Positions 16,138-19,139 of a stretch of 64,000 nucleotides of DNA are shown here, piece after piece (the first letter of the stretch is position 1; each line of letters starts with the position of its first letter). Below the pieces are notes generated by a model. That model saw only the letters and a program-made list of their open reading frames with translations, had not been told where the DNA came from and searched no databases. This stretch comes from Escherichia coli. GTDB taxonomy: Bacteria; Pseudomonadota; Gammaproteobacteria; Enterobacterales; Enterobacteriaceae. The position numbers were made by a program, and so were the translations under genes. The DNA lies in the NCBI RefSeq assembly GCF_044324785.1, contig NZ_CP172129.1. One strand, written 5' to 3'.

Positions 16138-16705
16138 ACATATCTTGGCCAGTGGCTTGGTCTGTGATGTGCTGCGTATACCGGGTGAACCGCCCCGCCG
16201 CTTGTTTGACCGCTATATTCTGCGGGAGTTTTCTTGGAGGCACGGGATGAAATCCGCAGCATGGCGGATGCCCTGGCAAAAATCCGGAAATGATGACGAT
16301 GGCGGGGAAAATCCCCGCCTTTTTCCTGCCGGTCCCCGGACAGAGCACAAAGGAAGTCGCCGCCGGCTCCGCTTTACCCGGCCATGCGGAGCATGGCCTT
16401 GTGGGGGTTCAGTTATGTGGACGTCGAGTCGTGTGCGGGCTGTGCCGTGCCTCCATCTTAGCCGGGCTGGCGTTGATGCAAGCAACTGTCTTAATGGGAG
16501 GCGGTTATCTGAAAAAAGTACGGGATAATATTATGGAATCGCCCATCTCAAGCAAAAAACTGACTCGCTTCGATACTACGCTGACAGGCTGTTTTGAGCG
16601 AGATATCTCTCGTGTCGGGCATCGACATTTTAAATGATTCTAAATAATATGAGCAGGGTCAGTCTTATTAAAGATTAAAACACCGGATAACAAGTTTTAT
16701 TGATT

Positions 16706-17281
16706 ATGGATGAAGAGAAAACTCGTGCTGAAGTGGCACACATAGAATTTATTTCATATGGTACGTCTCGAATTTTTGATAGGCGTATGAGATCCTTAGA
16801 CTGGAAGCGTAAGGTTGTCACCTTCCTTGGGGTCTTTGTTCCACTGATGATAGGTTGTGCAGTTTTATCATTCGGACTTGAAGCTCCATTTCTGCCGCTT
16901 TGCATCACAATTGCCGGTGTGGCAAGTATCATGCAATTGGGGTTCTCGCTGTGGTCTTTGGTTTCCGGATGGGATCGCTCATATAGTGATTGCATGGCTT
17001 CCGTTAAGGAAAATACAGCCATTTATAACCTAGCTGGTAGTGTTCGCAAGAAAATAGGTAAGCTTGACGAAGCCAAATTGGAAATTTTGATAGACGATTT
17101 GACGGAAAAATTTGAGCGAAGGGAGCAGGAAGACTTAACTTTGTGTGTGAGTGATAAAGAACTTCGTTATGCAAACCGTATGTCCTGTTTCTACTTCAAA
17201 AAAAAATGCCATATTTGTAATGTCGTTCCCCTAACTTTGAAACCGGGAAAATGTGTTTGTGATGGTTGTGGGAAATTTTAA
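16706..17281 (+). CDS. Hypothetical 2-TM protein, SLATT-like architecture with C-terminal Cys cluster (CHIC-x11-CVCDGC)
   Basis: 191 aa from the ATG at 16706 (the track uses TTG at 16700). A charged N-terminal helix is followed by two adjacent hydrophobic helices (VVTFLGVFVPLMIGCAVLSFGL and FLPLCITIAGVASIMQLGFSLWSLV). A charged helical region and then a Cys-rich tail complete the protein. AT-rich relative to the flanks. No strong SD. Confidence 0.7.
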   Translation: MDEEKTRAEVAHIEFISYGTSRIFDRRMRSLDWKRKVVTFLGVFVPLMIGCAVLSFGLEAPFLPLCITIAGVASIMQLGFSLWSLVSGWDRSYSDCMASVKENTAIYNLAGSVRKKIGKLDEAKLEILIDDLTEKFERREQEDLTLCVSDKELRYANRMSCFYFKKKCHICNVVPLTLKPGKCVCDGCGKF

Positions 17282-17293
17282 CAAGGAGAACAT

Positions 17294-17506
17294 ATGAGTA
17301 GTGCAAAAATTCTTAACGCTTACTTCGAGGCTTCTGAAGAAGATCGAAAGGAGTTCCTACGGGTTCTTAGTCATTTTTATAAGGATAACCGAAGAGTACC
17401 TCTGCAAGAGGGCATGGAGAGCTTTGCCGTCAATGAAAGCATCCGTAAATCGCAGTCAATTAACTTTGCCCCTATGCAAGGTGGGTGTCCACTCTGCGGC
17501 AAGTAA
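17294..17506 (+). CDS. Hypothetical 70-aa protein ending in CPLCGK, likely co-transcribed with the 2-TM protein
   Basis: ATG lies 12 nt after the upstream stop and is preceded by AAGGAG. The N-terminus is acidic and helical (EASEEDRKEFLRVLSHFYKD), and a CxxC sits at the extreme C-terminus. Confidence 0.65.
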   Translation: MSSAKILNAYFEASEEDRKEFLRVLSHFYKDNRRVPLQEGMESFAVNESIRKSQSINFAPMQGGCPLCGK

Positions 17507-17513
17507 CGACCAA

Positions 17514-17532
17514 AGCCGCTTGACTAGCGGCT
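17514..17532 (+). terminator. Hairpin after the two-gene cassette
   Basis: agccgct / agcggct 7-bp stem with a 5-nt loop, 8 nt after the stop. A T-rich stretch (gatagatttctttat) follows. Confidence 0.45.
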
Positions 17533-17559
17533 TGATAGATTTCTTTATATTGTAACTAG

Positions 17560-18940
17560 CATCTTTACATCCTGTTAAAAAAGTGGCTATTGCCCGCTAT
17601 CTTGCAATTCTCCGTATTTGGTACAAAAACAGCCGAAAGCTGCACTATCAGCAGCTATGAGCAGCGGCCCCACTGACATCGCGGATGCTTTGTCCGTGGG
17701 AGGGCGGATCACAACAGGCCTGCGGGATAAGTTGTTCTTTCTGTCATTATGTAAAATGACCGGCAGTCATGAGATTACCTGTGATTGAAATGAGGCGTTC
17801 CACTCTTCCCCTTTTCTGAGCATGGTATTCAGAATGGTGATGAGTTTGCGCATGCAGGCGACCAGAGCAAGTTTTTTGGGTTTTCCGGCGGCAAGCAAAC
17901 GCTGGTAGAACAGCTTTATGGCAGGATTAAACTGCGTAGCCACCAGAGCTGCCATGTTCAACGTTGCTCTCACTCCGGCTCTGCCACCAAACGTGGTCCG
18001 TTTCCCTCGCATTTTCCCGGAGTCTCTGTTTAGAGGAGCGACGCCAGTTAGAGCACTAATCTCCCGTCGATTGAGTTTCCCCTGTTCCGGTAGTTCGGCA
18101 ATCAGCGACGCGACGGTGATATCGCCGACGCCTTTCACGCTGCCTATCAGTCTGGCCTGCTCCTGGAAGAATGCTGTCATGTGTTGTTTCATTTGCTCAT
18201 TGATCCGGTCGAGCTCGTTTTGAAGCGCATCAATAATGTTATCGATACTCTTCCTGCTTTGGGGATGAGAAGGATAGAGACGATTACGCTCAGCGACCAG
18301 CATATGGTTCAACTGACGACGACGGACGACCATTGCGGCAAGTACTGCTCGTGCCTCATCTGGCAGATGCCGTATATAACGACTGCGGTCCGGATGGCGA
18401 TCAATGACCAGGGCCAGTTGTGCTAGCATGGCGGCGTCAAGTTTATCTGTTTTAGCCAGATATCCCATTGAACGGGCAAAATCCCTAGCCTGTCGTGGGT
18501 TGATCACAACCACATCGTATCCTTCTGACTGAAGCTTACAGGCAATGGCTGCTTCAAGGCCACCGGTAGCTTCCATGAGAATCAGGTTAATTTTGGTGTG
18601 CTTCAGTTTATCTGTGATAACAGCGAAACCATCCTCATCGTTACCCACAGTGAATGGCTCAATCGTGTCGGTGGTGGCGATGTCCAGCGATAGTTTGGCA
18701 ACATCAATACCCATGCATTGCAGATTTGGTTGACTCATATGACCCTTCCTTACGATACGAATTTGGTTTCAATCAACTGTACGGATTTGTGATGAGTGAC
18801 TCAGCTCATGCGCGGGACGCTTGCATGCGGGCTTAATACCCTCGGGTTCGCACGTGCTGCATGAGCTTTGCCAGACCTACAGATTCAGTTTATGCCATCT
18901 TCAAGATATAAGGATACGCTTCGCCGCTGCGGTCACCCGG
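17560..18940 (-). mobile_element. IS110-family insertion sequence (boundaries approximate)
   Basis: A single DEDD-type transposase ORF with ~200 bp of non-coding sequence on each side. I found no terminal inverted repeats, which is typical of IS110. The ends cannot be fixed without an empty-site comparison. Confidence 0.5.
17767..18738 (-). CDS. IS110-family transposase/recombinase (323 aa)
   Basis: N-terminal RuvC-like motifs (GIDVAK..., MEATGG) and a C-terminal domain with the conserved Ser context ([12 protein letters not shown]), as remembered for IS110 family. Confidence 0.85.
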
Positions 18941-19139
18941 TCCCTCCTTCCCGTCTGCCGTGATTTTCCGGTCGTTTACCCGCTCAGATTTCGCGGTCTC
19001 ACCCTCCAACTCCCGCCAGCCGTGTGTGTCAGGCTGCGGCTTCCCTTGCGCCCTTTGCATCCCCGCCTTATCGCCCGGCTTTTATGGAGGCACGGCACAG
19101 CCCGGTGTCGCGGAATATGTGAACAACGGAGGAAATCCC

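Follow-up and report, generated by a model that had tools for sequence, protein, structure and literature searches.

The inverted arms upstream of klcA in an Escherichia coli plasmid: a single-stranded DNA promoter hairpin very probably split by ISEc32

The question raised by a 64,000-nucleotide (nt) stretch of Escherichia coli DNA (contig NZ_CP172129.1 of assembly GCF_044324785.1; this whole stretch is referred to as the window, and the strand given as plus) is why two inverted sequence arms bracket mobile DNA directly upstream of klcA, an anti-restriction gene. A first-pass annotation, made from the sequence alone, had proposed either that a leading-region hairpin serving as a promoter on single-stranded DNA (ssDNA) was split by the entry of mobile DNA, or that two diverged copies of a backbone repeat were placed in opposite orientation by an inversion. 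The results described here indicate that the arms are, with high probability, the basal stem of the klcA ssDNA promoter of class 2 (ssp2 in plasmid F), split by the insertion sequence (IS) ISEc32 together with two passenger genes.

A repeat search of the window gave an inverted pair of 32 nt, 16436-16467 versus 19073-19104, with 91% complementarity and 2,605 nt in between, and within it a perfect 21-bp core was read from the sequence, 16436-16456 being the exact reverse complement of 19084-19104. The imperfect inverted arms around the insertion were thereby confirmed, and the further matches noted inside them also held: pairing continues inward through agccgggc/gcccggct and gatgcaag/ctttgcatc, extending the full arms to 16436-16482 on the left and back to about 19052-19104 on the right. 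The extents originally assigned (16437-16490 and 19055-19128) were too wide, because 16483-16490 lies outside the left arm and belongs to the insertion sequence, forming its right-end tip (CAACTGT), and 19105-19128 is a 5' leader without pairing partner. The right arm had been placed about 12 nt before the klcA Shine-Dalgarno sequence, but it ends 23 nt before the GGAGG at 19128. The klcA/ardB-type gene itself (19140-19565, plus strand; Pfam PF03230, Antirestrict) encodes 141 residues, of which 137 are identical to those of the antirestriction protein located 3' of the F hairpin.

The DNA between the arms was delimited by comparison with plasmids that lack the insertion. Megablast of window 15600-20100 against 72,556 plasmids gave at least 5,000 matching records, with one place covering at least 80% of the query in at least 244 plasmid records, and in the sampled records without the IS the query was matched as two pieces with a total span of only about 1.55 kb. 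In two IncI plasmids, window 16123-16482 runs directly into 18910-20100. The left junction in the window reads ...GTTGATGCAAG|CAACTG and the right junction ...GATATAAG|GATACGC, and the junction of the empty site reads ...GATGCAAG|GGTACGC. The insert therefore occupies 16483-18912 and measures 2,430 bp, counting one of the two copies of the duplicated dinucleotide. On the IS strand (minus), the sequence is GCGTATC|CT|TATATC on the left-end (LE) side, ACAGTTG|CT|TGCATC on the far side and GCGTACC|CT|TGCATC at the empty site, and these junctions place the two copies of the CT core at 16481-16482 (AG on the plus strand) and at 18911-18912. The G+C content is 46% for the insert and 42.5% for its passenger part, as against 60.5% for the flanks; what had been described as an AT-rich insertion of 2.5 kb is therefore moderately AT-rich.

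The cassette and the IS110-family element previously recognized between the arms are both present, but they appear to form a single element (see below), and the inter-arm DNA comprises, in addition to mobile DNA, 139 nt (18913-19051, minus strand) of the upper, apical part of the ancestral hairpin, which is now joined to the right arm only. By the insertion, the gap between the outer 21-bp stems is widened from 197 nt at the empty site to 2,627 nt in the window. The conserved 10-mers of the two arms are 207 nt apart in the empty site and 206-211 nt apart, with no gene in between, in all intact sites compared, and the intact, uninterrupted arrangement was also identified in an F-like E. albertii plasmid, in pESBL-EA11 and in F. 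In the plasmids without the IS, the arms thus belong to one continuous hairpin, as anticipated, but are never adjacent, with about 207 nt of structured hairpin DNA between their conserved cores; no case was found among them of backbone genes separating the arms.

The empty-site sequence, folded as ssDNA, forms a single long imperfect hairpin of about 250 nt with the two arms at its base, as the first-pass annotation had anticipated for a reconstructed site. DNA folding energies range from -67 to -84 kcal/mol with z of about -4, and no shuffled sequence folded equally well. Homologues were searched by a pattern scan with one genome per species, in which most hits were chance matches in GC-rich genomes and only the enterobacterial subset was usable; intact homologues located 5' of klcA-type or ardA genes were found in Escherichia, Klebsiella, Pantoea, Buttiauxella and Entomohabitans. 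Upon alignment of sixteen distinct hairpin copies in the transferred-strand orientation, RNAalifold gave a consensus of 56 pairs in nine helices. A total of 97.9% of cells are paired, versus 36-42% when the partners are slid by one to three columns; at 14 pairs both sides have changed with pairing kept, and neither the observed pairing nor the covariation score was reached by any of 500 shuffles. These compensatory changes, together with the 97.9% pairing, indicate that the structure is maintained by selection, and chance origin of the arm pairing is excluded because the pairing is kept with compensatory changes in 16 diverged homologues. When 16000-19400 was compared with Rfam (E up to 1), no match was obtained, i.e., there is no curated model for the hairpin.

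Within this consensus, helix 4 (columns 205-212, pairing with 52-60) contains the insertion point ...GCGTA(C/T)C|CT|TGCATC..., which is at the conserved CCCTTGCA, and the 139 nt left with the right arm correspond to helices 5-9. The mobile DNA thus entered the stem and not, as had been supposed, the loop, with the CT core at a -35-like hexamer, and duplication of the core keeps TTGCAT on the left arm.

The identity of the hairpin was examined by comparison of the rebuilt site with published elements over 324-336 nt. The identity is 93.2% to the pESBL-EA11 hairpin 5' of klcA, 91.7% to that 5' of ardA on the same plasmid, and 93.75% to the F hairpin 5' of its antirestriction gene. On pESBL, transcription in fresh transconjugants was found to start from hairpins 5' of six induced operons, with start sites mapped by 5' rapid amplification of cDNA ends (PMC12672017, Nucleic Acids Res 2025), and the klcA and ardA hairpins, with homologues in F, were designated class 2 ssDNA promoters, a group whose sequence differs from that of Frpo/ssi (class 1) (PMC12672017). 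The F element is named ssp2 and drives yfgB, an ArdB homologue (bioRxiv 10.64898/2026.01.09.698686); the F antirestriction protein compared above is here equated with YfgB by position and ArdB homology. The ssp2 stem stalls complementary-strand synthesis, leading to longer expression from other ssDNA promoters, and its deletion in F reduces transfer to restriction-proficient hosts 5- to 36-fold, or below detection, with no effect in K-12-to-K-12 matings (bioRxiv 10.64898/2026.01.09.698686). In the window, the hairpin likewise lies directly 5' of a klcA/ardB gene of the leading region, for which the transferred strand serves as template. The proposal of an ancestral leading-region hairpin driving klcA is thus upheld by the empty sites and the folds, and its description as a fourth Frpo-type hairpin is correct as to function but wrong as to family: blastn of the rebuilt site against the window gave no similarity to the three Frpo-like repeats, and the hairpin belongs to the class 2/ssp2 family.

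The strand logic was deduced from the motif GTGGGGTGTGGTGCTTT, which we take to be the F oriT nick-site motif. It is present in exact form at 31769-31785 on the minus strand, and therefore the minus strand should be the transferred strand and also the klcA template, with the right arm entering ahead of the left arm. On this strand the right arm is the 5' arm, on the template side, and its RNA reads as the plus strand into klcA; the left arm is the 3' arm, the stand-in for the non-template strand, and reads CTTGCAT-15 nt-TAAGAT-GGAGGCACGG. The -35-like TTGCAT is located at 16481-16476 and the -10-like TAAGAT at 16460-16455; neither the TTG..A nor the TA...T positions vary among the 16 homologues, and a three-base mismatch between the arms sits opposite TAAGAT. 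From these features of the sequence we infer that TTGCAT is the -35 element, TAAGAT the -10 element, and that transcription would start in GGAGGCAC at about 19088-19095. A promoter scan detected no sigma-70-like site for double-stranded DNA between 18913 and 19140. In the proposed mechanism, the incoming transferred strand would fold into the hairpin of about 250 nt after conjugative entry, the 3' arm would supply the two hexamers facing the template 5' arm, and host RNA polymerase would transcribe klcA ahead of complementary-strand synthesis. ISEc32, an IS110-family element predicted to be guided by a bridge RNA, inserted in helix 4 and duplicated the CT core.

The agent of the split could be identified from its recombinase gene (17767-18738, minus strand), of which the product of 323 residues carries the DEDD N-terminal domain PF01548 (3.7e-19) and the Transposase_20 C-terminal domain PF02371 (1e-15), matches NF033542 "IS110 family RNA-guided transposase" (198.7 bits, cut-off 140), and has as homologues in PDB the recombinases of IS621 (E = 5e-30) and ISCro4. 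The LE of 172 nt (18739-18910, minus strand) is predicted to encode the bridge RNA, in which guides were assigned by the published rules (PMC11208160), including that the 3' side of the loop is complementary to the core and the right side, and by comparison of four related elements. The target-loop stem GCUCAUGC/GCAUGAGC (18866-18859 and 18811-18804, minus strand) encloses the left target guide (LTG), GCGAACCCG (18851-18843), and the right target guide (RTG), AUGCAAG (18826-18820); the left donor guide (LDG), ACAGUUGAU, is at 18780-18772 on the same strand, where a second stem closes over the recombinase start codon. The RTG is the exact reverse complement of CTTGCAT (7/7). The LDG, as ACAGUUG, equals the far end of the insert at 16489-16483 (7/7), where the right-end (RE) tip ...TTAAGACAGTTG (16483-16494, minus strand) was recognized, and ACAGTTGCT has a single occurrence in the window, at 16489-16481, the far insert boundary abutting the left arm. 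The LTG matches the Klebsiella-type target GCGAACC|CT at 8/9, the closest empty sites at 7/9 and the flank in the window at 6/9. With the duplicated CT, these sequence-specific guide matches would be sufficient to explain the choice of target, and the preference of IS110-family elements for structured or palindromic DNA, offered by the first-pass annotation as the reason, is not needed.

The circle junction of the 2.43-kb ISEc32 would read ...AAGACAGTTG-CT-TATATCTTGAAG.... In such a hypothetical junction (16483-16494 joined to 18910-18880), TTGCTT-17 nt-TAAACT resembles a sigma-70 promoter facing the bridge RNA and the recombinase, like the junction promoter described for IS621, and in the integrated state flank sequence replaces its -35 part.

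Three relatives of ISEc32 were compared, and all four elements share the RE tip AAGACAGTTG|CT. Among them, the RTG and LTG covary with three different targets, and the target-loop stems carry compensatory changes. In the K. pneumoniae plasmid pB20154_2 (NZ_CP144724.1; 78% identical; L007 and L010), the LE is located at the same position 5' of a klcA-type gene and the RE tip, AAGACAGTTG|CT|TGCATC followed by the left arm, is found 24.3 kb from the LE, with the same klcA hairpin split. The cargo of this element (1087-25398 of L010) includes a sugar-utilization operon, a sigma-54 regulator, two IS630 copies and clpP, among others, making it a clear 24-kb example of IS110 ends that enclose accessory DNA. 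The E. albertii plasmid p2011C-4180-3 (67%; L009) carries a 1.17-kb element (2951-4117) with the RE tip CAACTGTCTTGA 21 nt past the stop codon, and its guides (RTG AUGUAAG, LTG UGCCCCU) fit the different target at which it lies, GTTGCCC|CT|TACAT. The relative on Klebsiella virulence plasmids (67%; L008; 2950-4117) is located in an IS3-family orfA, its RTG AUAUCAG matching CT|GATAT.

The E. albertii element lies at the 3' base of a class 1 hairpin 5' of ssb (equivalent to window 23885-23887), not inside the hairpin, in the same orientation relative to the downstream genes, and is thus a second IS110 lineage at a leading-region ssDNA promoter. The Klebsiella virulence-plasmid type was found in several hundred plasmid records of the IncFIB/IncHI1B type, the one copy examined being a case of an IS targeting another IS. 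Homing of the whole ISEc32 clade to ssDNA promoters was considered and holds only in part, one relative being at the base of a class 1 hairpin and another in an IS3-family gene.

Besides the recombinase gene, the insert carries two passenger genes on the plus strand. The first (16706-17281) encodes a "mobilome CxxCx(11)CxxC protein" of 191 residues (TIGR04402; 185.8 bits, cut-off 70) with hydrophobic stretches in its N-terminal half that resemble two membrane helices. It had been called SLATT-like, a designation not supported by any Pfam match at E up to 0.01 or any PADLOC match. The second is an open reading frame (ORF) of 70 residues ending in CPLCGK (17294-17506; hypothetical protein WP_000092896.1), with no family match in Pfam, NCBIfam or PADLOC. 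A sigma-70 promoter-like site, TCGACA-17-TAATAT (16622-16650, plus strand), identified by consensus match only, is located 5' of both. In PLSDB, the CxxC gene at 90% identity or more was found in 346 records and ISEc32 at 99% or more in 338 records, the CxxC gene occurring essentially only together with ISEc32. As the sole RE tip lies beyond the cassette and as the two occur together, the cassette should therefore lie inside the IS ends rather than being a separate insertion; judged from the sequence, the CxxC cassette and the IS read as one element within one pair of IS110-type ends. The cassette may either have travelled with ISEc32 or have been added to a resident IS, in the interval from the stop codon to the RE tip; that the Klebsiella sister has other cargo at the same site fits cargo turnover in place. 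A search of 16483-16760 for the remnant of a second recombinase gene, expected for a composite of two IS copies, found none. ISEc32, so far defined as an element of about 1.2 kb, is accordingly to be regarded as one of 2.43 kb that includes two passenger genes.

ISEc32 was identified in 326 of the 5,426 complete E. coli genomes (about 6%), at 342 places all with 99% identity or more, of which 339 are on plasmids, with a median of one copy per genome. All the full-length copies have the same right flank, and no second site of ISEc32 was found among these 342 places. The plasmid of E. coli ATCC 11775 bears ISEc32 and does not differ from the window in this region (100% identity). The right-flank sequence is present in 3,484 genomes, the split allele thus accounting for about 9% of its carriers. 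Many ISEc32 copies have secondarily acquired IS1, or deletions, within the cargo: in many plasmids IS1 is found inside the CxxC gene (window 17037 and 17730; L004 and L006), deleting 17038-17729 or the whole IS. Inactivation of the passenger genes is therefore frequent, and it leaves the hairpin split.

Other origins of the arrangement were weighed against a class 2 hairpin split by one IS110-type element. The inversion of two diverged backbone repeats could be suspected from the imperfect match of the inner arm parts, but the mismatches fall at conserved internal loops, paired positions change in a compensatory manner, and the arms are already inverted, about 207 nt apart, in every insert-less plasmid examined (IncI, F, E. 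albertii, Klebsiella and Pantoea); this alternative of the first-pass annotation is refuted, and we attach practically no probability to it. Just as implausible is a transposon that carries cassette and IS and has the arms as its terminal inverted repeats, as a 32-nt inverted repeat bracketing 2.6 kb of mobile-looking DNA might suggest: the arms remain in the empty sites and hence belong to the backbone, the insert boundaries (16482/16483 and 18912/18913) are inside the arms and show IS110-type ends and a CT core with no outer target duplication, and no copies of arms plus insert were found at unrelated loci among the E. coli genomes searched. Two independent insertions, in which an ISEc32 of canonical size (about 1.2-1.4 kb) would have been joined by a separate cassette outside the IS ends, deserve more attention, being in line with the size of about 1,180 bp reported by annotation tools, with the relatives L008 and L009 of about 1.17 kb having the RE tip 21 nt past the stop codon, and with the higher AT content of the cassette than of the IS. 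This rival is nevertheless improbable: no RE-like sequence (ACAGTTG-CT, up to one mismatch) is present near the recombinase stop codon, the only one being that at 16489-16481; the arrangement recurs, with other cargo, in the Klebsiella relative; and the cassette is essentially never found in PLSDB without ISEc32. The variant in which cargo entered a resident IS between stop codon and RE tip is compatible with the boundaries of 2,430 bp.

Several observations weigh against our interpretation of a promoter hairpin split, and impaired, by a guided element of 2.43 kb. Annotation pipelines treat ISEc32 as about 1.18 kb (PMC8703133), close to its canonical relatives of about 1.17 kb. The LTG agrees with the flank GCGTATC|CT in the window at only six of nine positions and with the closest empty sites at seven, no Rfam model recognizes the bridge RNA in the scan of 16000-19400 described above, and the single-sequence RNA fold of the LE is no better than shuffles (z = -1.07). 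The spacing of the -35- and -10-like elements is variable, being 15 nt in the 3' arm and 19 nt in the other arm here and 20 nt and 15 nt in another variant, which leaves the assignment of promoter elements tentative. The frequency of the allele (326/5,426 genomes) argues against a strong cost. In the equilibrium fold of the whole 2,741-nt transferred strand, the arms still pair, with 41 pairs at a mean probability of 0.90; re-formation of the split stem is thus predicted to be thermodynamically possible, the promoter may survive, and the predicted impairment would then be wrong. On this basis, the split could be functionally silent, the arms of 47 and 53 nt re-pairing across a 2.6-kb loop on the incoming strand to give promoter and roadblock as before, in agreement with the minimum-energy fold, with the intact left-arm TTGCAT left by the core duplication, and with the frequent occurrence of the allele with klcA intact. 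Equilibrium folding, however, takes no account of coating by single-stranded DNA-binding protein, of competing local structure, of the later entry of the left arm (a delay put here at a few seconds) or of the complementary strand being synthesized towards the hairpin from the side of the left arm. In addition, the upper hairpin is no longer joined to the left arm, and little about function can be read from the frequency, since even full deletion of ssp2 is without effect between K-12 strains (bioRxiv 10.64898/2026.01.09.698686). Functional silence is accordingly a serious but rather doubtful possibility, and we consider it somewhat likelier that early klcA expression and the roadblock are weakened by the split than that they are fully retained.

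The split allele offers a natural test of arm contiguity for ssDNA promoters and for the conversion roadblock. A further idea, which we regard as unlikely though of interest, is that ISEc32 and its Klebsiella sister represent a bridge-RNA-guided lineage that has its guide fixed on the -35 helix in the ssDNA promoter of klcA. If this were true, the split of ssp2 would retune the first events of plasmid entry, namely anti-restriction expression and the timing of strand conversion, the passenger genes would be parked in the leading region in an orientation readable from the incoming strand, and the widespread ISEc32::ssp2 allele would represent, rather than a neutral scar, a natural variant in host range or establishment among ColV-type F plasmids.

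Upstream of the left arm are located sopA (13513-14688), sopB (14688-15659) and the 43-bp repeats of sopC (15707-16136), followed by a terminator-like hairpin, GGCGGGGAAAATCCCCGCC and then a T-run (16301-16319, plus strand), which closes the upstream unit just before the promoter hairpin and is also found upstream of the hairpin in pESBL and F. The RefSeq hypothetical protein WP_001350917.1 (ORF 16290-16637, plus strand) spans the terminator, the left arm and the right-end junction of the IS, and is very likely not a gene. In pCFSAN004180G, a copy of IS421 near klcA was considered as another disruption of ssp2 and rejected, as it sits inside the terminator hairpin at a site equivalent to window 16301-16319 and the klcA promoter hairpin is intact. 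Downstream, three copies of a repeat of about 540 bp (82-96% identical) are located at 20400-21000, 23655-24260 and 29050-29660, each giving a hairpin of about 325 nt when the transferred strand is folded (z = -6.6 in the middle copy, which is 5' of the ssb operon), and presumably represent class 1 promoters of the Frpo/ssp1 type. A pyrimidine-rich stretch of the plus strand at 20300-20500 (AT skew to -0.64; ttcttcttcttcctctttccg...) marks the upstream edge of the first of these Frpo-like repeats, and comparable stretches precede the other two.

The hairpin itself is a published element and hence not new. Three points appear to be undescribed in the searchable literature: the split allele in a widespread plasmid lineage, a bridge-RNA-guided agent with guides matching the hairpin site, and ISEc32 ends that would enclose 2.43 kb here and 24.3 kb in the Klebsiella relative. 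In comparison with the class 2 hairpins of pESBL and ssp2 of F, the hairpin of the window is alike in its position 5' of a klcA/ardB-type gene, in strand logic and in its long stem, but is different in that helix 4 is interrupted by 2,430 bp and the arms are 2.6 kb apart. Frpo and ssi1-3, the class 1 ssDNA promoters (Masai and Arai 1997; Bates et al. 1999, as cited in PMC12672017), are similar in being transferred-strand hairpins of the leading region that mimic duplex promoter DNA, but have no detectable sequence similarity with the klcA hairpin and are classified separately in published work.

With IS621 and other bridge-RNA IS110 elements (PMC11208160, PMC11208158), ISEc32 shares a DEDD/serine recombinase of about 325 residues, a left-end non-coding RNA with two internal loops, as predicted here, the CT core and the lack of terminal inverted repeats. 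The recombinase is about 30% identical to that of IS621 as judged by eye. IS621 targets a chromosomal repetitive extragenic palindromic (REP) element, whereas ISEc32 targets a plasmid promoter hairpin, and its recombinase gene is separated from the RE tip by 1.28 kb of passenger DNA. Cargo-bearing "expanded" IS110 loci have been described in general, with ISEc32 unmentioned (bioRxiv 10.64898/2026.08.14.744561). Unlike these, ISEc32 has no known circular intermediate or second insertion site, all its copies being at one locus; as in these, IS110 ends appear to enclose extra genes, the cargo is plasmid-type DNA, and the sizes of 2.4 kb for ISEc32 and 24.3 kb for its Klebsiella relative fit the reported size continuum.

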